Below are positions 2,661 to 56,333 of a stretch of DNA of 64,000 nt, piece after piece (the stretch's first letter is position 1; each line of letters begins with the position of its first letter). The notes under the pieces were generated by a model that had not been told where the DNA came from, did not search any database, and saw only the letters and a program-made list of their open reading frames with translations. Position numbers and translations under genes: made by a program. This DNA comes from Rhynchopus sp. YZ270_cl-10 (Eukaryota): positions 1,674,001-1,738,000 of the forward strand of contig OZ037842.1 in assembly GCA_964035575.1 (NCBI GenBank), written 5' to 3'.

Positions 2661-3414
2661 CCTCCCCTATTCGCTGTGCGCGAAGACAAAATATGGAGAA
2701 GAATTCCATACCGAAAAAGGATTTTTTTTTCCACAACAGTCGTGCCCGTTGATGCCTCGTTAAAAGAATATCATGTTTGGCTGTGAAGCTAGGTGGATAA
2801 AGATAAATTCATTGTACAAAAGGGAGAAATACAATACATTTTCGGATTCTCTCTGATACAACGAAATTATCAATAAGTAAACACTTCGTCATGGTCTTAT
2901 TGAGGCATAACAAACGGCGACGGCAATGTAGAGGGGTCTTGAGGAGGAAGTGTGAATGAAAAAAAAAATGGAAAAGCTTTTTTCAAAACAAAAACCTGGC
3001 TTGAAGTTGTATTGCCGACTGCTTCTTGTCTATGTCAACATAAAATATTTGGTCTTGGAGATGATGAGGGGGGATTTCTTTTATACCCCAAAATACAACT
3101 AAAGATACGCTGGTGGACAATTCCATCCTTCTTTACTGGGAGGTGTGCTGACTACAACCCTTTTTTAGGTGCACAAAAAAAAAAGGGAAAGTTGTACGCA
3201 ACCTTAACCTCTCCAGTCAAGATTCATATCTTTAACCATTTGTAACGATACCTACTACGTGGTCATTTTTAAAAATCTCGGAACAAAGAGTGTTTCGAGC
3301 CTAGTGACTCCCTTCCTTCCCCCTTAAAATTCTGTCGTGTATCGCATCTTTCGGGGTGCCTGCACTAATACAACCAAAAAAAGTTTTGAAAAAACAACGA
3401 AAACTTTGGGTGAA

Positions 3415-3507
3415 CCACCTGATTTTCCCTGAAATTTGGTGGATGTGTTTGGTGGTGTTTAGAAAACATCTCCAAAACCTCCAAAAATTTCAGGAAAAAT
3501 CAGGTGG
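3415..3507. mobile_element. MITE of the CCACCTGATTTT family
   Basis: TIRs CCACCTGATTTT/AAAATCAGGTGG, flanked by AA/AA; inserted inside a family A hairpin. Confidence 0.85.
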
Positions 3508-3921
3508 AAGCTAAGCATTGAGAGGCTTAGCTTAGGTTCAAATCAACAGCATTTATCTCTCTCTCTCTATTTTTTTCTTTTTATTTTTTTCTTCTTTTTG
3601 CAGTGACAACGCATTTCCTTGTTTTTTTCTTTTCTTTTTCTATGCATTTAAGAGTATCCGCACCCCCTCCCCTGGCGCATCTTGCTAATTCTCTTTCATG
3701 GTAACTAAGCACCCAATCTTACATTCATCTTACATTTTTTATGAACTCTTTTTTTTTTGAAGATACGCGTGCATGAGGCACTGTCATCTTTCAAGAGGGT
3801 TTTGTATTGCTCTCGATCACCTTAGAATATTAACTCAAAAAGTAGCCCATTTGACAGAAAACGAGACGATTTTGGGTGCATGTCTTTGATTATTGACAAA
3901 AAAAGCCTTTTTTTTTTGGTA

Positions 3922-4252
3922 CCGTAAAAATATTTATTCTGGGCCGGAACAAAACTGGAACACCCCAAAAAATCGTCGATTGTTCCAGTTTTGTTCCGTA
4001 CCAGCATTGTTTTGGGGGGGTATCCGTGCCTTGTCAAAAAAAAACGAGGAGTGCGACGAATTTTTTTTGCCCAAAGATGCACTATGCACCTGGGTGGGGT
4101 GGGAATGGGGATAAAAATTCTACCCCAACAGAACTGTTCTGGGCCGGAACAAAACTGGGACACCCCCAAAAACCCCAAGTGTTCCAGTTTTGTTCCGGTC
4201 CAGTATACTTCTGTCTCAGAATAGTTACAGCCCAGAATAAATATTTTTACGG
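3922..4252. mobile_element. Tc1/mariner/pogo-like MITE
   Basis: TIRs CCGTAAAAATATTTATTCTGGGC / GCCCAGAATAAATATTTTTACGG; TA on the left, CA on the right; internal inverted GGAACAAAACTGG repeats. Confidence 0.8.
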
Positions 4253-4570
4253 CAAGTGTTTTGTTTGGGAGTTTGTTTTTGTTATTCGCTCTTTTTTTCT
4301 CTCCATTGACAAAGGGTGCGAGACTTAGGTTCTGTCTTCAAAAAAAAAATTCTTGTTCTCTGTGCGTGTTGCCAGGCCTTTGCTTTTTGATTTTTTTTTT
4401 TTTTTTGACATACGTCATTACCAGTTTGGATTTTATATGTTACATTTTGGTGATTTTGTTGATTGTCATCGTCACACTCTTACATCGTTATAGTGAAAAG
4501 GAAAAGGAAAAGAGGTGAGGTATTGGGCCTTACTACTCTACTCTATTCTTTCCTCTAGATGCAAACCACA

Positions 4571-4680
4571 AAATGGATGTAGGACCCGCATGGTTTCGGG
4601 TCCACCCCACGGTGCACCGGTCATGCACCAAGGTACACTGTCACGAGAGGGCTTTCTTTTTGTATTTCAAGTCAATTTTT
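4571..4680 (+). repeat. Family C ~100-nt multi-stem repeat; copies ~32492-32600, ~57167-57265, partial ~887 and ~22832-22935
   Basis: Shared AAATGGATG(T/C)AGG...GGTRCA..TGYACC..GGTACAC..GAGAGGGCTTT..TGTATTTCAAGT. Confidence 0.8.
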
Positions 4681-5990
4681 CTTCGTATTTTTCATTTGAT
4701 GACATTCGTGCCGCAACCCTCCCGAAGATAGATGCGAAGCGAGGCAGAGGGGATTATACCTCCACCCCCCAAAAAAAATATAGTGGAGTTCATCCTCGGG
4801 TGTCTACACTAATACAACCAAGTTTTCAAAAATAAATAAAACTGGTTTAGCATAGTGGAGGTAGCGTCATCGGGCGTCAACACTAATGCAAACCAAGTTT
4901 TCAAAAAAAATAATTGGTGTTCGTGATTTTACCCCCAAAAAAGTACTGAGGGGGTCAGGAACACCGCAATTTCTCCATTTTCCGCTCCGCTATAAAAGGG
5001 AATTATCCTCAGTGTTCTTTTAGATGAATGAAGAGAAGAGGTTTGAGTTTTCATCTAACCAACTTAATTTTTTTTTATATAATTGTTCTTTGTGTACATT
5101 GTACACAAAAGAACGACCTTTTAATGAGAATTAGCTGAAGGTGGACCAAGCCTAGAGAGGCTTAAGGTCGTCTTATAGTCTTTTCTTGTTTCCAGTTTAT
5201 CTTTGGAAGGTGATTCCATTCATTATTGCAAAGGTTCTTTTTTCCTCTTTTCTTTTAAGGTTCCCAAACGATAACGGTTGTGGAAAAAGGTGTGTGTTTT
5301 TTGTATACTTTCAATTCTGTGAAATGGAAGTATATGAATCTAATTTTGTTCAGCCTCCTGGGGCTGGCCATCTTTCAAGCTTCCCCTTTGTTCGATAGCG
5401 AAAGATGTGTGTACACGAGAGGTACTTTCATCTTACAAGTTTTCTTTGATTTTTATTGTGATTTTCCACCCTAAAAAAAATAGTTTAAATTTCCTTTATT
5501 TTCGCGAATTTGCGTCTGAAGCTGTGGCATTTACCGAAGGGAAAGGAATACATTATTAGCAAGGCTCAGAAGAAGAACAGCAATGCATCATGACAAAAAC
5601 TCTTGCGGTTTTATTTGACTCTCCATTTTTTTCTTTTTTTCATAGAGGTGGGTCAGAACTACACCGCATTCAATAAGTCCCCAATGGTCTTATTATCCAC
5701 ATTTTTTTCCGCAAACCCGCTGCTCAAGGTGACTAAGCAATCCTTGGTTCATCTCACAATTCTTTTTTTTTTTTTTTTTTTGAATTTTTTTTACCCTCCA
5801 TCCGTTGAAGCATCTGCACCAAAAAAAACAACAAGATTGATGCAAAAATCCCCTTCTTCTTCTTCTTCAAAAAAAAAAAATACCTTGTTTTGTTTTATAG
5901 CAGGCATACTGCTGTGTCATTTCTCCGTTTCGGGAGTTTGAGTGGATAATAAAATAGTTTATTGCCGTTTTCTCCGTTTCACCCACATCA

Positions 5991-6046
5991 GGCCGTACCG
6001 TTAACCGCAATAGGTCTCCTAGGCTAAAAGCCTCTGGCCGACAGAA

Positions 6047-6092
<46 letters not shown>

Positions 6093-6112
6093 AAAGGATT
6101 GGCTCCGAAGGG
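5991..6112 (+). rRNA. Isolated fragment (pseudogene) of eukaryotic LSU (28S) rRNA; may extend to ~6237
   Basis: Contains the conserved LSU text GGCCGTACC..CCGCA..AGGTCTCC.AGG...AGCCTCTGG...AACAATGTAGGTAAGGGAAGTCGGCAA...GATCCGTAACTTCGGGAAAAGGATTGGCTC; no flanking rDNA. Confidence 0.9.
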
Positions 6113-7502
6113 TACAGTGTAGATTGCTAGAGGGTTCGCGTTAGTATAGGGTTGATGTGGCTGCGGTCGCGCTCTCGGGTGCAACACTACGGTCTCTGAT
6201 TCTCGACTAACACTGCCTTGGACGCGTCTACAATGAAGTTTTACGGACGCTGTTTCGCTTTTTTTTAAAAATCTGACGACCTCAGCTAGCATTGTGCCTT
6301 ATTAGGTATATCATACCATGCTTTAAATTTCTCTTAGAAAGTTATGAAACAAAACAAAAAAACAAAAATTGGGCGTTGCCGTGTACTATCAGGTTGTTTG
6401 CACAAATGCACCCCCCTCCCCTCCCCTCCTTTTCTTTCCCATTTCACTCAAGCTGTCTCTGACCGGAACACTCCGTAGACGTCGGACGTTTGTTTGACTG
6501 GATTCCAACTCCTAGCGATATTGTTTCTTTATGGTGACTAGGCACGAAGGGCTAAGTATCATCTTACCAACTTATTTTTTTTTTGTGTGAAACACGTGTG
6601 CACTAGATATAGTGGTCTGCTGCGTGTCTTATTGTTCCACCCTCATGCGAGAATAGCATGGGGTTTTCTCGACAGAATATACATTTTTTGAGTAAAACAG
6701 TAAATATTTCCTCATTTCAGTTTCGGTGACGAAGCGAATTACCAACCTTTTTTAGGTGACCACAGAGAGGCTAGAGGCTTAGGTTCATCTTATAAAACTT
6801 TTCTTTTAAAAGCTTGCGTTCCATGATTTTGCGTCCCCCCTCTGCTGACAGAAAGCCGCTAAAGTCAGTAGCAACCACTCTTTGTTCGCTTCTGATCTGT
6901 ACAGCATCCCCCACTAGGATACTCTAAAATGTTACCCCATTTTCCCCCAAAAAAAAAAAAAACACACAATGAACCCAAGAAAGACCATGTGCTGTAATGA
7001 TTGCTTTTGATATAACTTCTTTTGCTTTCCCTGATAAGGGGGTGGTGGTACCACTGTGTGATTTTCATTGGTACGCCCATCGCCTTATCGTTTTTTTTTT
7101 GTGGATACGATTCTCTGATCGATTTTTTTCTTTTTTCTTTTTTGCAGCCCACCCTTTAGGGAGTAAGATGTGAATGGGTTTTGCCTTTTCTTACAATTTT
7201 TTTTTCTTTTAAATCATTGAGTACACATGGCTCCTTTGTTTTGGCGTTTCTGTTTCCTTTTTTTACGTCTCAAGCGAGGAGGAGGCATCTTTCCCAAAAA
7301 AAAAAAAAAATCCCTTATTTGAGGGAGGGAGGTACTTTTTTGTCTCTCTGTTCCTTTCTGTGCGTTTTCTTTCCCGTTTATTTTCAATTTTTGTGAGCAA
7401 TAGAGAGAAGGGGACGCTCTGTTATTCCTGAAAAAAGTTTGGGTACATTTTTAGTGCACCCTTATTATACCTTCTGTTCAGTAGAATAGTTAGTATATGA
7501 AA

Positions 7503-7623: not shown

Positions 7624-8418
7624 ATGAAACAATTTTGAGCAATAGAGGAAGAGTGACGCTCTGTTACGCGATTACTGCGATTTTTTATATAAAACGAATA
7701 CTGTTGCCGCGTCGAGCCAGTTATTTTTTTTTTCTTTCTTTCAAAAAATAAAAAATCTTTTTTCCCTTTTTTCAGAACTACCATTGAAAACGATGAACCG
7801 TGACAATATACACGACAAGAGTTTAAAAAAAAAATGTGAACCACAGTTGTGGCAACTTCATTAAAATCCTATTTCTTCAGAACTGATTTTTCAAAAAAAA
7901 AAGGAAGGGAGGGCGAGGGGTGCGAAAAAGTTGAAAAACTTTGCGTCCAAATAAGTTTGGACGATTTTGGAAAAAGGGGGTTTAGGTAATTTGGTGCCTT
8001 TGAGATATAGAAAAAAACCCTGCCTTTTTTTGGTGACATTCCGCACAGAACGTGTCCCTCCCTTTCTTTGAAGATGTGTGTGCAGAGGAGCATTCATCTT
8101 AAAAAAAAGCTTTCTTTTTTTGACCATTATTTTGTCAATACAATGAACTCTCCCTCTGGCTTGATCTTTTTTTTTTTGTCGAGTAACTTCCCTTTCTCTT
8201 CCTGTTCTTACGGTTGCCCAGATGGTTTGCTTTTCTTAGAATCTCTCCACAAAAAAAGCACATTTAGTACAGATCTTTACTGTAAAGTTATTTGTCAATA
8301 ATGAAAAAGCTGAGAAAATTAAACTTTGGTGCATGCCCCTTCCTCTAACCCCAAATAATCCCCAAAAAAAGACAACTGTGTGTCCAGAGATATCTTTCAA
8401 CTCTTTTTTGTTTATTTC

Positions 8419-8455
8419 AGGTGACTAAGCAGGAGAGGCTTAGGGTCATCTTACA
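8419..8455 (+). repeat. Family A hairpin repeat (AGGTGACTAAGC-ACAGAGAG-GCTTAGGTTCATCTT), representative copy of >=20
   Basis: Copies near 3511, 3761, 5022, 5139, 5403, 5727, 6532, 6754, 8072, 8419, 20442, 25111, 26591, 28178, 29969, 30267, 30379, 32716, 54121, 55293, 55981. Confidence 0.85.
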
Positions 8456-8732
8456 CACACCTGTTTTTTTTTTCCTCATTTTTCTTTATGCGGCTGTCAC
8501 TGCAGTTTTATTTTTGTTTAGTTTTCCATTTTCAAACTTCTCTTTTTTCCCTAATTAGGTTAGCTACCTTCACCTCCACCCTAAATCCGGATGATGCAAC
8601 ATGCAACCCTCTTTGGAAGCCACAAACCGTTTTTTTTTTTTATTTTTGAAAAAAAGGAGGGAGTACACGGTACACCCTTAGATGCTTACTGTGCTGTAGT
8701 AAGTATATGAAGTTTGTTTTTCTGTTCTAGGG

Positions 8733-10837
8733 CCACCTGATTTTGCCCCCAAAAAAAAAACGGGATTCGGGCCTATACGGCCTCGACGCAGCCTGTACGG
8801 GCCTATACGGCCCTTTACGCGCCTTTACGCGCCTTTACGCGCCTATACGCGGGGCCGAAAATCCAGAAAAAAATTTTTTTTGGGTGGGTTCTAGTGGGGG
8901 AAATTTTGTGGGTGAGGGTTGGGGTAACGTAAAAATGTTGGGAGTGGGTGCCTAAACCCTGAAACTTTACGCACATCTTCAGAATCCTCTTCCGGAGGGA
9001 CAGAATGTCACACGCTCGCAACACCCCTAAAATCGACAAAATGGATATCCTTCTTCCTCACACCGGGGTTGTTGCAACCGTTGCATAAATTTGGTTGCTT
9101 CTTATACAAGTCAGAGTAGCACGTATGGGGATTCTGCTGCAAGTACTCCTTCACCAAACCAAGTGTGTGGATAAGTCCGACGCTTCGCGAAGGAAGGAGT
9201 ACAATACTACCATTCAACGATTTAACAAAATCATTGAATGGACTGCTAAACACTGGGCCGGGTGCAGTGGCCGCCTCAGAGACCCTTGTCATCGACACCC
9301 CAACGGGTTCCCTTTGCGGAAAATTTCGGCAGCTCGCTTCCATAACTTGTTCGCCAAGATCTTGCCAATCAGACGGCGTGTCGCGTCCTCCCACGTCATG
9401 TCGTCGGTCATCCTGATTGCCAGGTGCGAACATCAGCAACGCTGATCTTCGGGCGAAAGAGCTGCTTCTTCGTACGACGGTGGCAATGGCGTTATGCGGC
9501 CGCCACTACGAGGCGATTCGGCCGGTGGGGAAGGTGGACTTACCAGAGGAACAAATGATGTGTCGTCGGACTTGATGAAGAAAGCGACGCTGAACCCGGG
9601 CCTCCTTGGCCACCTGAGGATCCACGCGCGGAAAATGAGTATGTCCTGGACCACATCTTCTCCTTCGGATTTAAGAATCCAACGCTCTGGATGGGATACA
9701 GGACCAGCCGAAGTGGACACGGGGGATACTTTGGAGGTGCGCCAGAAGCGCTCTCGAGTGAAGGTGGCAGCGGGACTCCCACGCCAGGCCTTGACTTCCC
9801 TCACCAGCGATGGTCTCGCCCCGCATGGACCTGCAACGTTTGCCAAGCTTAAGGGCAAGCACCCTACGGCGCACCTACCTTCTGTGCATGGGGACATGAA
9901 GAACCCCTCTGGCCCCGCCGACTTCACCACCAAAGAGGTCATGGCAGCAATCACCAGCATGCCGCGAGCCACTACAGGTGGCCCGTCAAACCTGACAGAT
10001 TCACTCCTCCGCACCTTGTGTGTTGTGCAACCAAAAGCACACCCCTGGCACGCTTGCTGCCCTGGCGAAGGTGCTGTCATCACTGGCAAAAGGCGAGGCT
10101 CATCGCAACTTTCTTCGCTGTGCCAAGCTAGCCCTCATGAAGGTGTCATGAAGGCAAGCCTGGCGATGCGCTCACTCGGTGGATTGATTGGCATCAAAGG
10201 TACTGCAAAGTAAGACCACCTTGCATTGCGTCTGTTCGCATTTAGGCGCAACCTCAACATCGTCATCGTCCAGTCGGTGGGTAGGACGGTGGAGAGGAGC
10301 GCCTAGCACATGACTGCAGCCAAACGGCCATCCACCCCGAGGGGTGGATGGCCGCTAGGCTGCAGTCATGTGTGAGGGTGTGCCACGGTGGGCTCGGACT
10401 TCCGCCAGAACTTTGTCGACCTCATGTGCCTGATCCCCGTACTCTGCGGACGAAGTGGCATCAACGCATCCACCACAACTGGTTGTGAGGGAAGTATTCC
10501 TCAAAGAAATCCAGTCGTCAGCCTCTTCGTCACACAGCCCCCATGCCTAGTCGTCGTCTCCCTCTACGATCTCATCATCCCAGAAAGCGACCTCCTCATC
10601 CTCCGCTTGGCGCAGTGGTGATGCCCAAACAAAGCGGGGCCGAAGGTGTCCCAGGGAGAGGGAAAAGAGTGGCTTTGGCGGGTTGTGGGGGATATGTACA
10701 CGTATAGAGGGAAAAATGGGTGGGGATGTGCCTTTACGGACCTATACGGGCCTATACGGGCTTATACGCGCCTATACGAGCCTATACGCGCCTTTACGCG
10801 CCTATACGCGCCTATACGCGGGGTAAAAATCAGGTGG
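8733..10837. mobile_element. 2.1-kb non-autonomous TIR element (CCACCTGATTTT family) with subterminal GCCTATACGC repeats and captured cargo
   Basis: TIRs at 8733 and 10837; TAGGG repeated on both flanks; 10-mer tandem arrays at ~8770-8850 and ~10730-10820. Confidence 0.85.
9494..10030 (+). pseudogene. Fragment of non-LTR retrotransposon (CRE/R2-group-like) ORF, region leading into the RT domain
   Basis: VAAGLPRQALTSLTSDGLAP...LKGKHP...FTTKEVMAAITSMPRATTGGPSNL resembles the RT domain 0-1 motif 'EV..AI.S.P...A.GPDGL'; no YxDD core seen. Confidence 0.6.
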
Positions 10838-10930
10838 TAGGGTAGAAAAAAGGAGTAACCAACACAAAAAAAAAGTAAAATGTTATACGGGGGCCAGCGG
10901 CGCTACAAGCTCACCAATTCTCTATTTTCC

Positions 10931-11080: not shown

Positions 11081-12974
11081 TTAAGTAGGAAAATAGGTCG
11101 GGTTCGTGTGAGTTTCTAAAAATATGGCTGCGTACTTTTCCTCTGCAAGCGTCGTTTTGTCAAATTTATTTTTGATTGATGTGTTGCACGAGAAATCACG
11201 TTTATCTTTTCTCTTCATAAGGAAAAAAAAATCGAGAATGGTTTGTAAATAATGCAGGATGTCCCCCACCCCCTAAAAGGTAAACGTTAGTGCAAAAGAC
11301 TCCACACCAAATAGTTCATTTTGTTGTTGTTGTTTTTTTTTTGAGAACCGAAAGTATAACACAAGAATAAATAAATATAATACAGTAAAGAATACCCCCT
11401 GTAGGAGCAGGGCAGAAGTCATATCCCAGAGAATTTTTTTTTTGTTGCCTTTCTGTTCTCGGGATATGGTGTGTGGGCATCTGAGCAGCTGGGCCCCAGT
11501 AGTAGGTCTTTTTGTAGAGGAAAGGAGTAAGGAGCGGAGAGTGCATTGCATTGTTTGCACCGGGATGTATAGTTGTTGAATTGTCTTTATGCTTTCTCTT
11601 CGAACGGAAAGTATATGAAATCAATTATGACCATTTAAAAGCACAGCTGTGCGCGCAAAGGAGAGATCCCCATCTGCTTTGGTCAGACGTAGCGCTGTGA
11701 CATGAGAGACACATTATTTTTTATACCAAGCATTTGACAAGAGGAAATAGAATCGATGAAAGGGTGCCAGCATTGCACGAAAGCCAGATATCCGTGATAT
11801 CTGCCTTCCTTTTATGCGGTGCCGATGGAGTGAGATTCTCTCCTTTTTGGGAGTGTTTTTTCATTATGGAGACACCTAATTTTTGAAGTGTTATTTGGTT
11901 TTAAAAAAACAGGTCTTCCCTCTCTACTGTCTTACTTTATACCCATTCTCGGCCCTTCCATTTGGAAGTTCCCATTCATAAGTAAAGAAACAAAAAAAAA
12001 AAAAAAATCTCGGAAATATTCACAACCATGGCGGTTGGAGTTGAGAAGATTTCTCTCTCTTTTCCTCTCTCCTCCACAACCCTTTCCTGTAGTCAGCCTT
12101 AGATGGTTATGACACCCCCCTTTCTTTTTTTCTGGCGGGAAAAAAAAAAGTTACTGAAAACAAAAAAAAAAAAAAATAGTCTCGATTGTCAAAATGTTTC
12201 TTCGAAACATTTGATAATACCCAATACAGAATTAGCTCTGTGTTTCTTGAAATAAAGTAAAATAAATGGTTTTTTTTGTAGTGTAAGGCAATATAGCAAA
12301 AGTGTTTGAGGGAAAATGGAACCCTTCATGTACGTCATCCTACCCTGTCATGTGAACCGATCTTACATTTTCGTTGTTATGCTTTCTTACGGGGCTGGCA
12401 TCGTGGGTGGGAGTTGGGGGATCAAATAACTTACATTTTCTTTGCCAATTTTTCTCGCTACAATATTCAAAAGATGCCGCAACTTGACAGCTTCCTCTCA
12501 AAAAAAAAAAAACAAGATATTTTTTTTTCCCATTCTTTCCCTGCTCTTTTATGTCATGTTTTTTTCTTAAAGTCTCTCCCCCTCTGCTCTCTTGAGTGAC
12601 CTGATATTCACTCCCTCTGATGATTGGACGTTAAAGGTCCAGATTTTAAATACGGCCCCCATCAGGGAATACCATTAGGTGTGTTTGAAGGGGGGGAATG
12701 ATTCGCACTTCTTGCGCACTTTTTGGACCCCTTCGTTCAGGCCAGACCATTATTTATACTATAAGGGGTATGCCTGCACACCCACTCATGTGAAAATAAA
12801 GGAGTGGTGCTATATGATAATGTAGATGCCGCAAAGAAGCAAGGCTTCGCATTATATGTGCATCATTGCAAACAAAAGAAGTCAAATTAAGATTTTTTTT
12901 TTTTTTTGCAATTTCATATCTGAGAAAAAGCTGCGACAGTGATCTTCTGACAGCTACTACCCTCCAACAGATTA

Positions 12975-20365: not shown

Positions 20366-20655
20366 AGTTGAGACAGCGTTTTGTATAATTCGAAAAGGAG
20401 GGTTGATGTTTGCCGGTTTTTTTCTTTTTCGTTCAAGTATAAGGTGGCCAATCATAGGCTTGGGTTCATCTTGTAAACTTTTCTTTTTCCGTTCGATTTT
20501 GTTTGTTCTTTGTTAGAGGTGGGGATGTTTTCTTGTATAGAATTTTAGACGAAATAATCGCACCACCCTTCCCCTTTTGCAAAGAAGGACTCCTAAGCCT
20601 CCCCAAGAGCTGCCCCCACCACTACCACCACACTTCCCAGCAACCCTCACACATC

Positions 20656-24822: not shown

Positions 24823-25839
24823 ATGGGACTTCTTAGCGGACTGCTGTACACTTTCCCCACTGAGCTGGGAAGCAAGCTGTACCTTGTCTTCTGCGGGTAC
24901 AAGGTATGTTCGAGCGCATTCCCTCCTCTTCCTCCCCCTCCCCCTCCCCCACGATACTAAAAGTTACGCACACCGTTTGGTGAAAATATGGTAACTCGAG
25001 TAACAAAGTACAAGACAAAAACAGAATCTTTTTTCACCTTTTGTCCCCTTTTTTTTAACTTTTCTTACAAATCCCCCTCCCCCACGCCCTTTGAGTAATT
25101 CCCTATGTTTGGTTAGTCAACAAAAGGACAGAGGCTTAGGTTCATCTTTATTATTCGTTGTTTTTTTCTGTTTTCGGTGAGGCATTTTGTCAACCTCTCT
25201 TTGCTTCACACCACATAGCATGGAGCCCCTCATCTCCTTTGGTTGAAGCGTCCACACACCACAACACAACCCAAACAGAGCTTCAAGGCCATCGAGTCCG
25301 CCGACACCGAGGATGACACCCAGTGGCTGACCTTCTGGACCGTGCTGTCCTTCGTTCAGTTCGCCGAATTCTGGACCGACATCCTCCGCAGGTGGATCCC
25401 GTACTACAACGAGGCCAAGCTTGCCCTGCTCGTCTGGCTTGGAGCCTTCCGTATGCCCCCCTTTTTAGGTGCCTAAGAAAAAGGATTGGGTTATTATTGG
25501 TGCTCCTGAAAACCCCATTTGCGTACTTGTTGCGCACTTTGTGCACGAAAAATACAGGAATACCCTTTTTTGCGTACGTGTTGCGTAATTATGTGTTTTT
25601 TCCCCACTCATGCCCACCCTTTGCAGCTCGACCGTTTTACCACGTTTTAACTACTCTTTCTTTCTTTCTTGGTTTGTTGGTAGAGAGAGATATGCATCTT
25701 ACCAAACTTTACGACACAAAACACAGGTGGTGCCCACATCCTGTACTCCACCGGAGTGCGCCCCTTCCTCAAGCAGCAGGAGAGCAAGATCGACGAGACC
25801 ATCGAGAAGGCCGAGGCCGGAGCTGGCATCAAGAAGTAA
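24823..25839 (+). CDS. YOP1: TB2/DP1/HVA22 (YOP1/REEP) family ER membrane protein; exons 24823-24903, 25279-25450, 25727-25839
   Basis: YKSFKAIES..DDTQWLTFW..FAEFWTD..WIPYYNEAKLALLVWL..RGAHILY..VRPFL..ESKID. Confidence 0.9.
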
Positions 25840-26391: not shown

Positions 26392-28009
26392 ATGACCGAG
26401 GACATGGATCCTTTTGACATGAACGGCGACGATGCCTGGGGTATGCAAATAAATTCCTTCACTCCCACCTTTTTACAAAAATCTTCACCAAAAAAAAATA
26501 GATCTTATTACCCTCATCTCTGCATTAGTGAGGTTGGTTTCACCCACTAACCTTTTGGGCAACACAGAACACATTAAATCATCCCCCCTAAACTAAGCAC
26601 AAGAGGCTTATGTTCATCTAAAAGACTTTTCTTTCCCCTCCAAAGATTTCCCGACAAATGCCCATATACAATCAATCCGTTCTCCAAATACCCATTGGTA
26701 TCAAGCAAAATAACATTATTTTTGCTTCTTCCTTTGGTACACCCTGCGAACGCCTATTGCCAACCCCTATTAACCCCCTCAGTGTTCGTAGGTTTAATGT
26801 AGGGTGTATAAAAACAGGTGTATTATAAAAACTGTCCTAAACTGTTGGAGTGTACTAAACCAACACTGCCCCCTCCTCACAGATGACGTGAGCTATGGAG
26901 CTGCTCATGAGAACAGCATGGGGCACAACGCGTGGGGCAACCTGTGGGCAACACAGCTCTTTGAGCAGCAGGAGTATCTGAAGCGTGATGATGATTACAC
27001 ACCGCTGACGATTGGCGCGATTGTGGATAAGACGGTGCGGGCACGGGATCCTCGCCGTGTGGCGAGAAAGCGAAAGCGAGAGAAGGAGAACGCGCTGGAG
27101 CCTGCTGCACGCACGGCAAGCGGCAGGACGCTTGACGCGCCTGAGGCGGACGCTGCAGACAAAGAAGAGCGGGAGGACAGAGAGGAGAGGGAGCAGCCCA
27201 GCACCGCTAGCGTGACCCCTGCCACCTCCTCTGATGCAGCTGACGATGATGATGACGACGATGATAACGACAACGACGACGACAACCACGACGACGAGCT
27301 TGCGAACCTCTACGGGTACAAAGACGGCGACATCCTTCCCGGCTCAGCCGCACCCCTCAGCTACAAGCGCGACATCCACCGCCCCGCCACCTGGACCGCA
27401 CGCGAGACCCAGCGCTTCTTCCGCGCTCTCTCCATGTTCAAACTCTCCTTCTCCCTCATTGCAAACTTCTTCCCCGGACGCGAGACCCGCGACATCCGTG
27501 CAAAGTACAAACGCGAGCTCACTGTCAACGAATCCAAGGTCTCCGCGGCACTCCGAAAGCACCGCCCCGTCGATGAAGCGCGCTACAGTGAGTACAAAAA
27601 GGCGTCCGAGACCATCAGAAAGCTCAAGCAGGGCGAGAGCTCCATGAGCAACCAGAACGACACAGAGGGGCTCAACCCGCTGAAGGTATACCCACCACCA
27701 CACACAATACCCACATTGTTTTTCCTCTTCCTTTTTTCCCCTTACATCTCACCCACCCGCCCTCCCCTTCAGGATTACGACTCCTTCGACTGTGTGCACA
27801 TCAACCCCAACGACCCTACCTTCATCCCTGGTATGACGGAGCCTGCACACAGGCCCACACAGGCCGACGCAGCGCTGCAGGGCCTTCTCGACTCTGAGTT
27901 TGCACCGGACACTTCAGACCTGACACAGCTCGTTGCTGAGACGACGAGCTCCATGCCAATCCCCGAGGACATCGACATGGAAGCAGGATGGGATTGGTCC
28001 ACCGGGTAG
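26392..28009 (+). CDS. BDP1: TFIIIB B'' subunit-like SANT/Myb protein; exons 26392-26440, 26883-27685, 27773-28009
   Basis: WTARETQRFFRALSMFKLSFSLIANFFPGRETRDIRAKYKRE matches the Bdp1 SANT signature. Confidence 0.82.
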
Positions 28010-28552
28010 GGGGGGTGATTGGGGGGAGGGGGGAGTGGGGGGTACGGGGTGGGGGGGGTGTGAGTTTCAAGGTGAGGCTTTAACGGTGAGGCCTTTCATT
28101 ATTTTTTTTTTTGATAAATTTTGGGTCGTGCTACCTAAAAAGTGTTGGGGTTTTTGCCTCGTTTTAAAGGCGTTCGAAGGTGGCTAAGCACAGAGAGGCT
28201 TAGTATCATCTTATTTAAAAATGGCGTGTATGAGGGGCTCAGGGCGGCTTCCGTTTTTTAAAAGCATAAAAATCCCTTTCCTTTGTCGCCCCATTTTATT
28301 TTATTTTTCTTCAAGTTCTCTCCCCTATTTTTTATACCATTTAGCAGCGGTACGCAGCACGACAAAATTAAAAAAAGAAGGAAAAAAATACATTTTGCGA
28401 AACTAACCTGCCGGAGAGTTAAAAATGTGTTTCCGCTAAAAAAATCTTGTGTTTGTAGCACGGAAAAAAAAACCCCTTCCCACACATAGATTTCCACAAA
28501 AATAAACAAACAAAACCCACGCTGGTCTTCCATTGTCACCGATTTTTTTTTT

Positions 28553-28630: not shown

Positions 28631-31128
28631 CTCTCTCCTGAAAAAGGATTTCAGCAAAAAAAAAAAAAAACAAAAAATTGGATCCTTAGGAAGGGAGGCA
28701 TGGAGTGAAAAATGTGGGAATATACAATACAAAATGGAGAAAAATGCATTGAATTATTGAAATATGCGACTTTTTTCAGTAGCGTTACTAAAGAACGAAA
28801 AAAAAAAAGAACACAAAACAGAACCACCAGCCCTCCCATACCCCTCTATTGATGAGCGCGGTTGAAGCTGCGGTCGAAAACACAAAAAAAATTAAAAAAA
28901 AAACAACTTGTTACTTAGAGAACAAACAGCGCGATTTTCTCTCACAACGTACTTTGGTTCTTTCTAAAAAAAATAAAAAAAAATAAAAAAACAACATAAA
29001 ACAAGTTCTCGGGGATAATAAAACACTCTAGCCTTTTAAAAAGGTGCATACTATGTGCACTATGTTTTTTTTTGTGATGTTTTGTGGTTTTTGGCTTAGG
29101 TCCATCTTCCAAACTTATCTTTTTATCTTCTCGGGGCATGCCTGCATAGTGTGACTGCATTTGTCTGCGATGTGTATCGTGGGCCACATTCTAGTATATT
29201 TTTTCACTAGGAAGAATGGTCATGGTGTCTTCACTGCAGCACAGTGAGGGGCAAAAGCTTCATCTATTATTTTTCATTTTTACCACCATATACTATCAAT
29301 TTATTGATTGCATATGATGAAAATAATTTTTAGTGTCGCTCAAAAACCTCCATTTTGTACTACAAAGAAACACAAAAAAGAACACACACGTTATCTTTGG
29401 CGTGAGCCACACCATTTTTTATGCTATTTTTTTCGCCCCATCTCTGCCTCTTAGAGATGAGGTACGCGCTGTTCTAAACCGAGGAGTCGAGGAGCCTAGG
29501 TCTTGGAGAAAACAGCATTTTATGTTTGAAAGTGTGACCAGCATGGCATATGAATGAATTTTTCTTTGGAACGAATCGGACCGGTATTAAAGGGGGGATA
29601 CTCTCAAGGCCCTGTGGTGGTTATTGTCGAGAAATTTTTTTTTAAAAAAATGAGCAAAAGGCAGTAGTGGGCCACATTTTCGTGATGTTTTTCTGCGACG
29701 GAAAAAAAATAACGTGCTTTGCTTACCGTACCGCTTCCTCCCTCTCCCCGCCCAACGTCTGTTGTGTTCTGTGTTCAATAACACAGAGTTTTTTTTTCTC
29801 CAATTTTTAATCAGTGCTGCACTAACACCCATTTAAGTTTTTTTCTTTTTTTCGCACGTGGTCGTACGTGAGGTGGGCATGGGGTGTGTCGACTTCGCTT
29901 TTATTGAGAAAACAGATAGCCAAGCAATCAGGGCACAGCTATCAGTGTGGTCTCTTTTGTATGCACACAGATGTGTATGCACGTGAGGCATACTCATCTC
30001 AACTGTTCTTTTATTTTAGCTTATTTCGGCTTTGAAAAAAGTGTGCTGCATTCGCAAGGTTCAAAGTAAGTTCTCTAAAGGGAATTTTTATACTTTGTGC
30101 GGGGGGGAAAAAGTGACTGAGAGTATGAGTTGTGAGAGGTTAATAGCAAATTGTACTACCCTTTTTTTTTGGGGCTGGGGGGAGACATCATTTTGTGTAT
30201 TTTTACTCTTTACAGCGTGGACCCACACCCTAAAATAGCATTTTTTTGTTTTTTTTTTTTTTAAATAGGTGACATGAGAGGTTCATATAATCTCAAGGTT
30301 CCTTATTGTTTTCCCTATTGTTTTTTTTTCACTCATGAGTCTTAGGGCAATTTGACAAACTTCTCTTTTTTTTTAAACAGATGTGTGCAAGGAGAGGTGT
30401 TCATCTTTCACGTTTGTCTTCTTGTTTTTTATTTTTGTTGCTTGCTATTGGGTGCAGGTTGCTCCTTTTTGGGTAATGTGTACGGAGAAATACATTCACG
30501 ACGGTGAAGTAAATAACTTGACCTGTGGTTTACTTGTCAAGGCATTTCCTTCACACCGTTGTGTTGTCACTACAAGCACCACACCACCCCTAGAAGGTCC
30601 GACCTGGCAGCGGGGTCCCTCCACTCTAACCTAGGACTAAACAGGAAATCACAGATGCCTCGTTTCCCTCCCCCTTTTTTTTTTAATTCCTAAAAGAAAT
30701 TTTAGTCGCGCTCACGAAATAGTTTTATGACCCAGCTGTTTTTACGAGCAAGGTTTTCAAGGAGATATTTTTTTTGGTCAAAAAAATGGTATTTGCGCTC
30801 AAAGACCAGTTTTGTAAGCACAACTTTAAGGTGCGTGCTGGGGGGTGTTGTTTTTCTTGAAGCTATTGAGAGACATTCTTTTTCCCGCATATTTTTGTGT
30901 CCCCCCTTAAGCGAATTTTCCTCCTTTAAGCGACAGTTTGGGTTCCTCCTTTTTTAAAGGTAACCGTCAGAACAGAGAGACAGCCTTTTTTCTCTCTCTC
31001 TCTCTCTTTTCCCCCTGTACAACGTTTTGACTCATGACCAGAGTACCTGGTATGAAAGGTCAACCGCTTTTTCCTTTCCCCCTTTTTTCCACCCCTTTTC
31101 CACGGTTTCGGAATGATCTTTTTGGCAG

Positions 31129-32456: not shown

Positions 32457-33948
32457 ATGACGCGTCTCAACGTTTTTTTCAGATGTAAACGAAATGGATG
32501 TAGGACTGCATGGCTGGGTGTCCACCCCCGGTACAGCCGGTCATTGTACCAAAGGTACACTGTTCATGAGAGGGCTTTTTGTATTTCAAGTAAACTTTTT
32601 TTTTTGTGGTTGATGGAAGCGCAAAGAGAGTTCACACACAGCCTTCCCCATACACCATGATTTCTTCCGATGTGTTCTTAGGCACTTCTGGGGGTCCTTT
32701 TCCCTTTATTTTAGCAGATGTATGTGTGCACGAGAGGCACATTCATCTCACAAATTCTCTTCTTTTTTGCGAGTTCGCAAAATAAAATAAAATTTGAAGT
32801 TTGAAATATTTTTGTGCTCCACAACGCAACCACAACTGAGTGATGCAAGTGGTTTTTTTTTTCGAAATGGGACACAAAAACAAAAGCAAAAATCAGACAA
32901 AGCAACACTCACGTATACGATCGTTCATTTTCCCCCCTTATTCTATAGTGTTAATGTCAGTAGTGTATTTTTTTCTCTTTTTTTAGGCTGCGTCAGGAAA
33001 AGGAGTTCTATTGATGAATAGGTTCTCTTCTCAAAAACAAACGGGGGGTGGGTGGGGGGGTAAGGAGCAGACATCGAGTTTTTTTTGTGGCATTTTTTTT
33101 TAGTGTATCAACGATGTGTTACACATTTTTTGAAAAATAAAATGTGTGCATACCTTTCCCTTTTTTGTGTCAAATACACACCATAAGCTCTCAAGAAAAA
33201 AGACATTATTAGGTACAGATCTTTTTTTGTCCAGTAGGTAAGGTGATTGTCGATACAACAAAAAAACAAAAACGGGTGTAGACTACCTGGCAGCGCTCCA
33301 TTTCAGGAAAAAGTACACCTGAAGAGACAATAATTATTGATATTTTTTTTTCGAAAAAACAATAGCCTTCGGGCGACATTGAGTACAGATCCTGCACTAG
33401 CAGGTGATTGTCGACACAACAAAACATGACAAAAAAAACCTCCGTGAGCAACAGCAAACGAGAGAGAGAGAGATAGTAATTATGACAAACAACATTGGTA
33501 TTGTGCGTCAGACTGTCGTCTGTCCGAATCTTATAACCAATAAAGTGGGTTACGTGAAGGACATACCTTGTATTGCCAAACACAACACGTTACCAAAGGT
33601 CACCGTTAACCTTCTTGCAGTTTAGTGACCTTTAGATTACTTCATTTGCATTTTTCCAGATCTGTCCCAATGGACCACACCTGGCAAAACAATCGCAATA
33701 GTTTATTCAACCCTTCAGCGGGAGGGAAATCGCCACATTTCAAAAAATCTCGAATTTTTTTTTCAACAAACAGGGTGGTGACGCGGGGGGGTAGTTTTTG
33801 TTTCTCTCTTCAAAAAAAAGGTTCCACTTTTATCCTCCTTCACAACACTTCTTCCCATTTTCTTTTGTGCTTTCCGGATGGCTGACATCGTACGTGGGTC
33901 GGTCGGAGGTGCCTATTAATAACTTCACTTTCTTTCAGAAACACTACA

Positions 33949-45377: not shown

Positions 45378-45404
45378 GTTCCTGGGTACCTGTTCCTGGA
45401 CCTG

Positions 45405-45573
45405 GACCTGGGTACCTGGGTACCTGGGTACCTGGGTACCTGGGTACCTGGGTACCTGGGTACCTGGGTACCTGGGTACCTGGGTACCTGGGTACCTGGG
45501 TACCTGGGTACCTGGGTACCTGGGTACCTGGGTACCTGGGCACCTGGGTACCTGGGCACCTGGGCACCTGGGT
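45405..45573 (-). repeat. (CCTGGGTA)n satellite, reverse complement of the 36192 array
   Basis: Tandem octamers with a few GGGCACCT variants. Confidence 0.95.
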
Positions 45574-47589
45574 GTGCCTGTCGGACCCCAGGGTCCGGCA
45601 GTCGGACTCAGGGGTCCGACTGTGAGTCCGACAGTCGGACCCCTGAGTCCGACTGTCGGACTCAGGGGGTCCGACTGTCGGACCCCCTCGGACTCCGACA
45701 AAAGGGTCCGACATTTCCAGGACAGACTGCACCGTGTACCCAAAAAAAAAAAAAATGGGCTTTTTTATATATCGTCTGTTGACTTCAAAGTCCACAGCAT
45801 TGGTGATACCAATACTCAATTTTTTTTGTTTCAAAAAACTGGGCGCGTAACTCTTGTGCACTAAAAGTTTTTTTTTTCTTTCAAGATTTTTATTTTTCAA
45901 AGTAGAACCCCTACTGCCCCCCCCCGCCCTCATCTCAGGGAAAGTCACCTTCTAGATGATCTGAATGCCAAAAGTATTCGGATTTTTTTTTGTTCCTCTT
46001 TTTCTAGTTTTTGTTGTGCTTTCTGAGACAGTGGCGCTCTAACATTATTATTACAACATCTTTGTTTTAACGATACCAATTGCGAAATATCGTGTGTCTT
46101 CCTCCTCTCCCATGTGAGGAGGGCGGCTACGCTTATCTGACACGCTTTTGATCTGGTTTTCTGCCTTTTTTTCTCTCTTTCGGTTTGCTCTGCTTCGCGT
46201 CACAAAGCTTCTTCGCTCTATCTGACAGCAAACAAAAAACACAAAAAAATAATAATAGCCACCTCAGACATAAAATTAACAAAAAAAAAATATGAGGAAT
46301 GAAAAGATCTGGGAGGAAAATGAGGGTGGGATTTTTCCCCCACAAAAAGTATCGAGTGCAAAAAGAGCTTTTTTTTTTTTTTCCTTTTTGAAAAAAAATA
46401 CCATGTGCAATGATAATTCTTGGAATTGTTAAAAAAAATGAATCGTGTTGTGTGTTGTTTTTAGGGCAGCAAAACTTTTTTCTTTTCTTTTTTAGAAAAG
46501 TTTTTTATTTTTTTGGCACCAAGAACAGAATGGGTATAGAAGTCATTGATTCAAAAATCAGGGGTTGAAAAACGAGAACAAGGTGATGCAGGTTGGGTCT
46601 TTTCATTTTCATTTTTCTTCGCTGAAACCGAATATTTTTTCTTTTGTTCCGCTACACAAACATTCATATCATAAGGGAACGACGATGGGTCGCATTACAC
46701 CCTCTCCTTGCCTTCTTTCTATGTATGAACATTTGTTGATAGTGGTCCCGCTAATGGATAACCCCCCTGCATTTTGTACTCTTCACCTGTGTTCTGTCCC
46801 TATTTGAGCCTCCTTCTGTTTCATTTCAGTTTGGCGTTTTTTGTTACCCCAAAAAAACTTTTTTTTTTAAAGGTGAGTTGTTATCTGCTCATGTCACTGT
46901 CTACCCCATTTGAGGCGGCATGGTGACTCTATGTCCTGCTGACAAACTGTTTTTTTTTTCTTCACCTCATGTGGTGGATAGCCACGAAGAAAAACAGCAC
47001 GGATTTGGGAATTGCTGGGTCTTATTTTACTGCATTCCTGCGACATGGTGCACAGAACCTGTCGTCGTGAAATGCATGACCCCGTTTCCCCCACGTTTTA
47101 TGAAAGAAACAAGAGATGCCCCCACTTCAAACGGGTGTTTCATTTTTGTTTTGTTTTTTTGTTTTTGAACGGAACTTTGGAATATTGCAAGACCTACTGT
47201 ACCCCCTTCTCTGCTCCCTTACTTGTTTTTTTTTTATATGTTTCGAACCCACACAGAAACCACCCTCAATGCCAACACAAAAAGCAGCCTTGACTGATTC
47301 TGGATTGTGATTATGTTCTGTATACTGATTATGTTCGTCCGACGAACATTGACGAACCGTCCTTAGACCCAGGACGAACATCGACGAACTTTTGGTTCGT
47401 CGTGTGGGAGGGCCCTTATAAAAAGTGACACTTTTGGTTCGTCGACGAACCAAAAAGTTCGTCTGCACACTATGCTTAGGGGGCACGTAGCTACCTGAGT
47501 AAAATAATGATAATAAGCCTATTCGCCCCAAGTGGGTTCTATGCGATGGTCAACACAACAACACAAAAACCCCGTTGCATTTGATACAT

Positions 47590-54040: not shown

Positions 54041-54990
54041 TGGGGGGCTAGAGAGCGGGCCTCCACCTGAGGCACCTTCCTCAACAAGCTGCACTGTCTG
54101 TGCAATTCCCTGTGAAATCAAGGTGACTCAACACGAGAGGTTTAGGGTTAGGGTTATCATATAAACTTTTCTTTTTTTTTTGGGTAAACTAGAGTTTTTT
54201 TTTATTTGCTTCGCAGGGAACATTTTTGTTGATCCCTATACCCATGCTTTCAATTTATTGCATGCATCATATTATGTTAAAATACTTTGCGCAGTGGGAG
54301 AGAGACGGCAAACCAAAAATACCTGATGAACTGTGTGGTCCGCCTCTCTGAGGAGGGGGAGTTCGAAATTCGGATTTTTTTGTGAACACGTATTTTTTGT
54401 GTCAATATATTTTTCCCGTTTTTAGTAGTATTTGTTTCAATTTTCATTAGTATCCATTTTATGGGATGTTTTTCTCTGCCTGGTTTTTTTAATTTAGCGA
54501 GGCGTGTTTACCTCAGCATTTCCGCCTTTTAATTTACTTTCTTTTTTGCAGTTTTACGGTTTTGATAGCATGCGACAGAAACTCCAAAACTGCAAAGTGC
54601 TGCGAACAGGCGAAAGTGCCTAAGTCGCTATAGACGCATTCATCTTTCATTTTTCATTTTTCATTTTGCGGGGTTGCAAAAAACACCTGGCTGTTCTGGG
54701 GTGCATAATACTGTTATTATCCTCGGTGTACGTTCAACTTCACCCTTTTTGGCCTCAAAGAGGTTTCCTCTTCACGGTCCGGTAGTCAGTGGGAGCGTAT
54801 TGCAGTAATAAAAATATCAACACAATATTTATTACACACTTTACGCACACAAACAAAGGATTTTCTTTTTCAATTATAAAGCGCCTATGATGAAGATGGG
54901 CAAACCACCCTACCAAAAAGGCAGCAACCCCCTGCTAGATACATTCCCGTCCAAAAGCAAACAATGTTTTTTTTTTTTTTTGACTGTGTG

Positions 54991-55726
54991 CAGGGCGTTC
55001 GCTATCGCCATCGTTTTTTCCTGATCGTGGCGAAATGCCAAAAACCCCGAAATTTTCGTTTTTTTACTAGTGCTTAAAATAGGTCAAAAAAATTTTCCCG
55101 CCGGAGAGAAGTTAGTTCGTGGGTGAATCCCTGGTACTGAATGGTCAAAAAAAATTTGCGATTTGCGCGTGATCCCTTCCCCAGCACAAGTGATATTACA
55201 GCTGAACTTTCCTGATACTAAAACCAGCAAAACGATGAAGAATTTCATCAATCCCCCCTCACTGAGGGTCTCTTTGTGTTGTTTAATCAAGCAGATGTAC
55301 AAGAGAGAGGCATCCGTCATATGAGACTTCATCCTTATTTTGATTATTTTCAACTCTCTGCCATTGAAGATAGAGTTGACACGAGCAGTGACACCTTCTA
55401 TAACAGGGGGTACGGTACACCTTCAGCAGACTGCAGGATTGAGGAGCGAGCGGGAGTGCTGGGGAAACTTCCTCTCACGGCAGGCGGGTTTACGGATGAT
55501 TTTGAGTACAGTGGACACCCCTCTGCGACCCCCGGAGGGGTCTACAGGGTGGTGGGGAGAAATCTCTCTCTCTCTCTCTCTTTTTTTCCCCCTTTATTTA
55601 TTTATTTATTTATACAGGGTTTCGCCCCGGTGGGGCGAAGCCCTGGGGCGAAATAAAACGTCATTTTTTCAGGAAAAAAATTTTTTAACGAAAAAAAATA
55701 TTTTTCGCCCCGGGGCGAACGCCCTG
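54991..55726. mobile_element. hAT-like non-autonomous element, 736 bp
   Basis: 12-bp perfect TIR CAGGGCGTTCGC / GCGAACGCCCTG; 8-bp TSD ACTGTGTG; subterminal TCGCCCCGG repeats. Confidence 0.92.
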
Positions 55727-56333
55727 ACTGTGTGGTTCTCGGTTAACTTACAGACACAACACTCGAATAAGTCTCTCTCTCTCTCTCTCTCTCGCCGGTA
55801 CTCGGACTTTCCCATAGCTGGAGCAAAAAAAGGTTCCTAGGGTCCTAAAGTTTCTGCTAGAAGGTGTACCGTTATTTGCACCAAACCATGAAATAGAGCA
55901 AAAAGAGAATGGTGCGCATTACACTGCGTTCCGTTCCTACCTTCTTCCGAGGCTTTGTTTTTGTTTTTGTTTTGTTTATAAGATGTGATCATATACGTAT
56001 TCATCTTGCAACCTTTTCTTTTGTTATGTCATCCTTCTGTTACGTATTACGTTGTAGACAAATGTGCTGTTTTTAGGGGCACTATTTTATCTGTATTCGT
56101 CTCCAAAAGAACGCCTCACCCTCCCCCTTTACAGCATGCCTACCTCCCCTTTGGCCCCCCTTACCCCATACACACCAATCACAGAAATTCTACGATAACC
56201 GTTCACATTCCGTATTTTGCACACAAAAAGGTGTTTTCTTTCGCATTATTTGCCTTTAAAGTCCTAAGTGAGGGTTTTGGTTAGGCATCTTTTATTTCCC
56301 TTATAATGCTGATATAACCGCAGTTACGGTACA

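Follow-up and report, generated by a model that had tools for sequence, protein, structure and literature searches.

The nearest precedent for the repeat described here is provided by the SIDERs, sense-biased and degenerate retroposons located in the 3' untranslated regions (UTRs) of Leishmania (PMC2689281, PMC4035085). In the descriptions given of them, sense SIDERs exceed antisense ones about 4-fold, about a fifth to a quarter being antisense (PMC2689281), and their origin has been placed in the ingi/L1Tc clade, their signature of 77-79 nt being able to contain a hepatitis delta virus (HDV)-like ribozyme (PMC4035085). The account of the P. papillatum genome reports ~2500 retroelement-type gene models, ~3600 dispersed 28S pieces, ~10,000 dispersed repeat motifs and long 3' UTRs (PMC10161547). 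In the current study, we analysed a stretch of 64,000 nt (hereafter the window) from Rhynchopus sp. YZ270_cl-10 (assembly GCA_964035575.1, contig OZ037842.1, positions 1,674,001 to 1,738,000), in which a sequence-only reading had pointed out a recurrent hairpin, family A. Family A is a real, apparently undescribed and very small one-way repeat. That this ~42-nt interspersed hairpin is a very small non-autonomous retroposon is, in our view, close to an even chance, and this reading is favoured because of its fixed ends, its near-identical copies genome-wide, its T-rich flanks, its single orientation here, its location in transcripts and the decay of its copies.

The family A unit of ~42 nt occurs as two subfamilies with the same loop, ACGAGAG: A1 (AGGTG-A-CTAAGC / GCTTAG-GTT-CATCT) and A2 (AGATG-T-GTGTGC / GCACAT-T-CATCT). 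A basal stem, formed by (C/A)AGRTG with CATCT(T), is followed by a small bulge or U.U and an upper stem of 6 bp; after the loop and the returning upper-stem arm, CATCT(T) leads into A(C/T)AAAC and a T tract. The T-rich tract reported earlier behind the hairpin is confirmed by a T content of 0.62 downstream vs 0.30 in non-coding DNA. T is also raised upstream of the copies (0.43 vs 0.30), which had been missed.

A hidden Markov model (HMM) of the hairpin core, built from 14 seed copies, gave 14 matches at 10 bits or more (12 seeds and two non-seeds), all on the + strand, and at 6 bits or more it gave 16 on + and one on -. Thirty shuffles of the window in 200-nt blocks contained no match of at least 10 bits (maximum 7.4 bits), showing that the recurrence at the intergenic, intronic and post-stop places named before is beyond chance. 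With each seed left out in turn, 11 of the 14 were regained on + (eight above the shuffle maximum), none on -, and three were missed. A covariance model, the check proposed together with the sequence-only reading, was built from eight A1 copies and found nine additional + copies at E<1, five of them A2-type. Its minus-strand matches, six in number (E 0.85-4.6), comprise three reverse readings of + copies, two overlaps with near-palindromes at 14395 and 24366, and one (37406) that stands alone. Altogether, we count 23 copies. The figure of at least 20 given earlier therefore holds only when partial and degenerate copies are included, since those of at least 10 bits number 14.

The 23 copies, all on +, range from near-consensus to mere remnants. 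Near-consensus A1 copies are 8419..8458 (24.4 bits; z -2.7), which served as the genome-wide probe and coincides with a repeat peak at 8419-8455, and 28178..28218 (23.9 bits; z -4.0), 169 nt past the stop codon of a BDP1-like gene; their A2 counterpart is 32716..32755 (14.4 bits). Compensatory changes are found in two A2 copies, 5403..5440 (17.9 bits; loop ACGAGAG, one G-C to A-U) and 29969..30006 (z -3.0; loop ACGTGAG), and in two A1 copies. One of the latter, 20442..20478 (U-A to C-G), lies 77 nt past a stop codon, has a ~15-nt flanking direct repeat and is read through by an RNA contig (19489-20519), and the other, 54120..54166 (G-C to A-U, with a duplication of GGTTAG), lies 80 nt past a stop codon. 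The distance of ~80-170 nt claimed for these post-stop copies was thus accurate, and the A1 copy 1970..2006 (9.5 bits), with a short loop and a partly broken basal stem, is a further case at 103 nt. Other A1 copies show two broken pairs (6531..6571, 16.4 bits), re-pairing in a shifted register (5139..5180), a loop deletion (5727..5761) or an internal deletion plus duplication (6754..6797, 20.5 bits with the covariance model, outside its training set), and the A2 copy 8072..8106 has a short deletion. The A1 copy 3409..3538 (18.1 bits for its 3' part) is split by a ~93-nt transposable element of the miniature inverted-repeat type, or MITE (3415-3507, CCACCTGATTTT ends, 2-nt AA duplication), and its 3' arm is partly duplicated. 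Three A1 copies have lost 5' sequence: 25111..25154 (14.9 bits) is a 3' half with a decayed 5' arm, 26586..26626 (17.7 bits) lacks the basal 5' arm, and 29086..29114 is a 3' fragment. Regarding the two copies described earlier as intronic, 25111 lies in YOP1 intron 1, which spliced RNA contigs confirm, while the intron around 26591, the first of the BDP1-like gene (26441-26882), is inferred from GT..AG and the reading frame only. The remaining copies are 3698..3737 (A1, degenerate, four pairs broken, 6.2 bits), 3761..3789 (A2-like, placed between the T tail of 3698, which it directly adjoins, and a 3' end resembling that of family B), 5022..5063 (degenerate, basal stem intact, 13.5 bits), 30379..30413 (A2, degenerate, after the T tail of a further fragment at 30341), 54610..54645 (8.3 bits, subfamily not assigned) and 55981..56012, a near-palindromic basal stem only; 30379 and 55981 were among those missed when left out of the model.

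The spread of family A beyond the window was assessed with public contigs matched to 8040-8500. Runs X1 and X6, which carry no record of being RNA, were judged to be RNA from spliced YOP1 joints, X4 is a DNA run, and the RNA contigs come from long-RNA runs. Of 594 contigs on this segment, 293 were at least 95% alike and 160 lay only partly on it. The summed depth, which according to the tool's own warning does not equal copy number, reached 419,398 in X4 at 8424-8439 vs 165-455 in the flanks, and 227,634 in X6 at the peak vs 24.5 beside it. The peak is narrow (8419-8455), that is, the repeat has sharp ends. The 78 left-junction contigs in the three best rows are a safe lower bound on the distinct junctions (at least ~80), and the depth ratio hints at 10^3 copies genome-wide. 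As the copies are near-identical, they did not originate independently. Elsewhere in the genome, contigs show A joined to family D in either order and the 3' end of family B joined to a T tract, and in the window copies stand behind the T tails of others (3698/3761, 30341/30379). The exact pattern had no match in JGI metagenomes, IMG/VR or GTDB genomes, collections that hold little diplonemid DNA and are uninformative on conservation.

The consensus flanks, a T tract ending in CA before the hairpin and TAAAC with a T tract after it, are alike in X4, X6 and X1, and family A lies inside long RNA contigs (positions 1329-1386 of 1850 in one, 708-748 of 1302 in another). Neither a spliced leader before nor a poly(A) after the hairpin appears in the consensus flanks of the RNA runs, which are a majority consensus that could hide minority use. 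Since the RNA flanks are the same as the DNA flanks, most copies are not leader junctions or poly(A) ends. This bears on the proposal that family A is a splicing or 3'-end processing signal in polycistronic RNA, acting as a stem-masked AG acceptor, as a CTNAY branch point with a U tract, or like the nematode Ur element, which has the form of a stem-loop plus UAYYUU. The Ur element is described as intercistronic and as steering the spliced leader to a downstream acceptor (10.1101/642082). Family A does open with AG after a T tract and close with a CTTAC/CTCAC-like motif before a U tract, and an A-like 3' end at 25697-25726 (CATCTTACCAAAC) is positioned ~25 nt before the RNA-confirmed acceptor of YOP1 intron 2, where it might be a branch point. 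However, in the RNA runs T-rich genomic flank makes up the loose ends of the consensus (59 and 43 contigs in X6), in place of leader or poly(A), and no A copy lies within 350 nt of the three inferred spliced-leader acceptors. These two observations weaken a role in processing, which we consider highly improbable. A more specific form, with the leading AG as trans-splice acceptor and poly(A) after the stem, was dropped because the flanks in the RNA-run consensus are genomic and T-rich.

All window genes supported by Pfam, homology or spliced RNA are on the + strand, and so are all 14 strong copies of family A, in agreement with the orientation reported before; in a window without a minus-strand gene, gene-strand and chromosome-strand bias cannot be told apart. 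Non-coding + DNA is mildly T-rich (172 T-rich vs 96 A-rich 20-mers; local T-run share 0.54). T-tract targeting as the sole cause of the strand bias was rejected, as 23 of 23 copies are on + (P=4e-7, from local T/A run shares). Sibling families are one-way as well, all matches scoring more than 10 bits being on + (three for B, seven for C, three for D, two for E and two for F, using HMMs built from the same copies), and a 1.5-kb repeat associated with terminal inverted repeats (TIRs) occurs in both orientations in the window.

Of 17 copies folded as RNA, 16 fold better on + (-9.0 kcal/mol on average, vs -5.9 on -), whereas the single-stranded DNA fold is weak and strand-neutral (+ better in 9 of 17; -3.5 vs -3.2). 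Since the folded copies share ancestry, the strand result speaks for the source elements more than for any individual copy. In four copies, folding with controls gave z values of -4.0, -3.0, -2.7 and -1.6. These data can be set against the idea that family A is what remains, in minimal form, of a single-strand DNA element (HUH/Helitron-like or REP-like), whose hairpin would be recognised in DNA and inserted between T residues. No target-site duplication (TSD), T on both sides and short paired ends common with the longer family B are features resembling HLE2, elements that are described as inserting T-T (PMC11417382). Nevertheless, the weak DNA hairpin shows no strand preference, the right repeat is followed by no separate 3' stem-loop, a CTRR end is missing, and no transposase was seen in the window. 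We think such an origin very unlikely. To our knowledge, no single-strand DNA element follows the gene strand.

Family A had been proposed to be conserved as RNA structure, which overstates the case. We counted pairs in a hand-set register covering 20 copies, 174 pair cells and 31 substitutions relative to the subfamily majority. Of the 27 changed pairs, four are compensatory, seven stay paired through a wobble and 16 are broken. Four compensatory pairs exceed the ~0.6 expected in a neutral simulation (P=0.001-0.003), but most of the covariation separates the subfamilies, and in A1 alone there are two vs 0.5 expected (P=0.09). The outer-stem and inner-stem alternations noted earlier (AGGTG/AGATG and CTAAGC/GTGTGC) split almost wholly by subfamily and so represent few events. 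Pairs kept overall number 11 vs 10.5 expected under a neutral model with the observed transition rate (P=0.49). RNAalifold on eight A1 copies gave an unfavourable covariation term (+1.28), with one of 11 pairs compensated. Template switching in palindromes can likewise produce compensatory pairs. Two other counts were set aside: that from a MAFFT alignment, in which A2 rows are 2 out of register, and that from the covariance-model alignment (85% paired, seven two-sided changes), which is structure-fitted and contains training copies and reverse readings. Broken copies are tolerated (5' arm lost in 25111, 26586 and 29086; internal duplications in 6754 and 54120; a MITE in 3409), and the loop, which had been said to be kept, is altered or lost in 5727, 20442, 1969 and 55981. 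Hence, of the selection on an RNA fold suggested earlier, a fold at the RNA level of the sense strand is upheld by 16 of 17 copies and four compensatory pairs, but in-place selection of each copy is unsupported, because single changes are neutral-like and a number of copies are broken. That is how a mobile family looks when its sources need the fold and its copies decay.

The same data weigh on the alternative that family A is a cis-regulatory mRNA element under in-place selection, however it was first spread, in which a protein on the stem-borne ACGAGAG loop would set mRNA stability or translation for many genes. We regard this as unlikely, if deserving of serious thought. It would agree with the single orientation, with the sense preference of the RNA fold and with the presence of copies within long RNA contigs. 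A role as platforms for protein binding has also been suggested for the long 3' UTRs of diplonemids (PMC10161547). In the first 200 nt past a stop codon there are four of the 23 copies vs 1.4 expected, a weak excess on an approximate exon map (p=0.049), and the RNA-to-DNA ratio of summed depth in X6 is 0.43 and 0.28 in A bins vs 0.11 in a family D bin, a weak difference as such depth is a poor measure of expression. The X1 depths were left out of any RNA enrichment, neighbouring bins without A being equally high. Against in-place selection, the stem is broken in 16 of 27 changed pairs and the loop lost in several copies, copies are found inside introns and as far as 6.5 kb from a stop, and nine of 13 gene ends have no copy inside 200 nt. 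Some copies may nonetheless act as protein-binding signals in mRNA.

A further RNA-level explanation is that family A is a pocket-less H/ACA-like hairpin, on whose basal stem, A(C/U)A and 3-nt tail the core proteins of small nucleolar ribonucleoproteins (snoRNPs) would assemble, so that it would be trimmed as a small ribonucleoprotein or block an exonuclease and spread like small nucleolar RNA (snoRNA) retroposons. The order stem, 1 nt, ACA/ATA/AAA, 3 nt and U tract is present in 10 of 22 copies (ACA 5, ATA 3, AAA 2), and eight more are one change from ACA; an A ahead of a 5-6-bp stem I fits the trypanosomatid model as published (PMC2613932). Such a reading would account for the sharp ends and the sense-only sources. 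By the criteria stated for AGA-type guides, the pocket spans 5-11 nt and lies 13-16 nt from the box, and the box follows stem I by 1-3 nt, 3 nt from the end (PMC2613932). A pseudouridylation pocket is missing from family A (the internal loop, 1x1 or a 2-nt bulge, has 0-1 nt in its 5' strand and 1-3 nt in its 3' strand, vs the 5-11 nt required), the hairpin measures 42 nt vs ~70 nt, and the AGA box is found in none of 22 copies; young A1 copies mostly have ATAAAC, and no Rfam snoRNA matches. We therefore rejected an AGA-type guide RNA on the missing pocket, the 42-nt length and the lack of AGA, and we hold even the pocket-less form to be quite unlikely. The Rfam comparison suggested with the sequence-only reading returned no family at gathering score (Rfam 15) over any A copy in the window; 28150-28240 gave only NrsZ at 17 vs 76.9 bits gathering, and 32690-32780 gave nothing. 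What we take to be likenesses of family A to the sarcin-ricin loop, the U6 ACAGAGA box, the CAB box and a purine riboswitch have no Rfam support.

Among the three candidates originally put forward, the recognition stem of a short retroposon fits best, the processing signal is weakened, and a guide-type intronic RNA fails on pocket and size. As a micro-retroposon, family A might spread as follows. Transcripts reading through a copy in sense would give off a hairpin RNA, which the reverse transcriptase of another element would copy back into non-coding DNA rich in U/T. The fold and loop would be the cis signal that the source RNA needs for protection, trimming and copying; compensatory changes would be fixed in source lineages, and inserted copies would drift. 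One-way orientation could result from the loss of reversed copies or from a transcription-coupled insertion step. A reversed element would offer A-rich tracts and AG dinucleotides in a host with A/C-rich splice acceptors. Some 3' UTR copies may have been co-opted, as SIDERs were.

Several observations speak against this micro-retroposon reading. As a class, the copies lack TSDs (flank score 6.92 for self vs 6.83 for cross pairings; p=0.37 by permutation over 18 copies), although old copies in T-rich DNA could hide them, and no poly(A) tail occurs at the copies, which are T-rich on both sides so that a U tail is indistinguishable from the target; both features are usual where retroposition is target-primed. 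The earlier statement that neither was seen thus stands in general, except for the ~15-nt direct repeat flanking copy 20442, which ranked first against all other pairings and is the only clear case. No partner element was found; a possible reverse-transcriptase relic at 9734-10210 gave no Pfam match and, in the atlas, a lead below 0.9 only. The contigs listed showed neither an empty site nor an insertion polymorphism. The sharp 5' end without any promoter needs an unproven processing step, and an extra step is likewise required for the orientation because T-tract targeting alone gives no such bias. Besides, the A2 consensus is based on only three complete upper stems. A cut-and-paste MITE was ruled out, given the asymmetric 3' tail, the lack of TSDs and the single orientation of family A, in each of which the true ~93-nt MITE differs; its second copy, at 32363-32456, has CCACCTGATTTT ends too and a 2-nt flanking duplication (AT), as the first has AA.

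Family A is accompanied by sibling families, all on +. Starting with AGATG and terminating in AA(C/T)TTTT, family B (~115 nt) has CACGAGAGG, in that form or as a variant, close to its 3' end (4557-4672, 32481-32591, 57153-57258; partial 873-950 and 22890-22926). It starts after a T tract, its own two ends pair, and both ends are common with A; the CACGAGAGG 9-mer occurs five times in the window, always on +, three times in A and twice in B. That the ends are common while the interiors vary suggests a single machinery, mobilising or binding, for A and B. By eye, family B forms a three-way junction with two covarying hairpins whose loops could pair (GGT/ACC, GGC/GCC and AGT/TCT in the three copies), a layout that to us recalls purine-riboswitch scaffolds; its minimum-free-energy z-scores were not significant and no Rfam family matched. 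At 22898-22924, one contig (depth 586), found in X6 only, connects the 3' end of B with a stretch rich in A, which may be a poly(A) tail a short way past CACGAGAGG. Family C, a ~45-nt hairpin ending in CACTAATACAACCAAG followed by T and A runs, lies at 374-418, 3347-3378, 4781-4828, 4853-4901, 23019-23069 and 34476-34521; two copies stand 30-45 nt before intron 3' ends and could supply the branch point. Family D is a hairpin with T tracts on both sides (28554-28625, 33863-33930 and a weak 12377-12432), often joined to A elsewhere in the genome and the repeat of highest depth in 14500-31000 (3.3 million summed depth in X4 at 28586). Family E, a ~110-nt two-hairpin element ending in ACAAAC (950-1059, 54750-54849), is the best candidate in the window for a genuine RNA of the H/ACA type. 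A superfamily of tiny structured RNA modules, with common ends and the ACGAGAG loop, could be formed by A and the longer B, possibly together with C-E; its members would spread as RNA in sense only, reach thousands of copies and be bound by proteins in UTRs. They would make up a self-propagating post-transcriptional regulon, and the lineage itself exerts little control over transcription. This extension is speculative and, in our view, rather unlikely.

Regarding the host, 18-25 unmatched letters precede the AG sites 15149, 23302 and 24793 in RNA contigs, and we infer that they are spliced leaders. These three acceptors, like two intron acceptors confirmed by RNA, are A/C-rich and have CAG/TAG at their end; A/C-rich acceptors are reported for some Diplonemidae, most strongly for D. 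japonicum (PMC12621601). From the + genes, the spliced leaders and the A/C-rich acceptors as in Diplonemidae, we take the host to be a diplonemid with polycistronic transcription. YOP1 is spliced at GT..AG in RNA contigs. The best named relative of an EXO1-like gene (15163-17028) is a protein of EukProt 'Rhum' (57% identity), a label that we read as Rhynchopus humris. An intron-rich gene at 20657-22664 ends in the C-terminal domain of topoisomerase IB only (PF14370), which presumably makes it similar to the small subunit of the split kinetoplastid enzyme. Two neighbouring intron-containing genes (38339-38826 and 39635-40253), as read from the sequence, encode small His/Gly/Pro-rich proteins, and 31129-31650 is an exact 261-nt tandem duplication, either recent or an assembly artefact. 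A 28S rRNA fragment on + at ~5950-6290 (Rfam LSU 6059-6283, 28 bits, below gathering score) resembles the dispersed 28S pieces of P. papillatum. Between CCTATACGCG arrays, 8760-10840 holds a decayed element with an open-reading-frame piece (9734-10210) that is 76% identical to the unnamed P0121; the piece appears to us to resemble the start of a non-LTR reverse-transcriptase domain, unconfirmed by Pfam. TIR-bounded elements with GGTACCCA / GGGTACT tandem arrays occupy 36017-38069 and 40500-45730, and a 1.5-kb segment recurs in them in inverted orientation (36191-37662 vs 45567-43993, 90%).

Among marine protists, diplonemids are abundant; they transcribe their genes polycistronically, and their 3' UTRs are very long. 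A sharply bounded one-way repeat of 42 nt is a concrete handle for reporter, pull-down and structure tests in them, and its strict orientation raises the question of how an element spreads one way only. If copies regulate mRNAs, they would make up a genome-wide regulatory code, and if the regulon reading of the superfamily is true, its members would be among the smallest mobile elements known. Our literature searches found no description of such an element, on which supplements outside their scope could bear. As far as it was covered here, the P. papillatum genome paper describes no hairpin of this kind (PMC10161547), and a MEME search of diplonemid introns is reported to have yielded only CA- and G-rich motifs (PMC12621601).

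Compared with described systems, family A resembles most closely SIDER1 and SIDER2, which are high-copy, non-coding, interspersed in polycistronic euglenozoan clusters, sense-biased and present in 3' UTRs (PMC2689281). It shares with them the sense enrichment in a gene cluster, with gene strand and chromosome strand inseparable here, and RNA contigs read through it. SIDERs are several hundred nt long. Unlike them, family A is a single ~42-nt hairpin, about ten times smaller, with no antisense copy in the window; it is too short for the 77-79-nt signature (Pr77, itself not aligned here) and matches no Rfam ribozyme. Bacterial REP sequences, imperfect hairpins of 20-40 nt in hundreds to thousands of intergenic copies, are also read into 3' UTRs, but occur in both orientations and depend on TnpA-REP; family A is one-way in the window, and its pattern had no match in GTDB genomes. 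AGA-box RNAs of trypanosomatids and Euglena, as portrayed in PMC2613932, are likewise single hairpins with an A before a 5-8-bp stem I and a trinucleotide box 1-3 nt on and 3 nt from the end, located in sense in Pol II transcripts, but family A has no pocket and no AGA, spans 42 vs ~70 nt and behaves as a decaying repeat. HLE2 (Helentron/Helitron2) has a T-T insertion context, which family A may share, and likewise short paired ends and no TSD (PMC11417382). The consensus flanks of A are T-rich on both sides, the exact junction not being fixed by an empty site; in place of the 12-16-nt TIR pair and separate 3' stem-loop of HLE2, the much smaller family A has one hairpin with a 6-7-nt tail and an RNA-strand-specific fold. 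SIRE of T. cruzi, a non-autonomous VIPER derivative, is a short element in which both ends of a longer element are combined (PMC6681497), and A may stand to B in the same way; SIRE measures ~430 nt and has a known tyrosine-recombinase parent, whereas for A no parent or sequence similarity was found. Overall, family A is apparently new, and its kind is related to the SIDER/SIRE theme. Even if it is only a decaying micro-retroposon, it would carry this theme, at one tenth the size, into a sister lineage.

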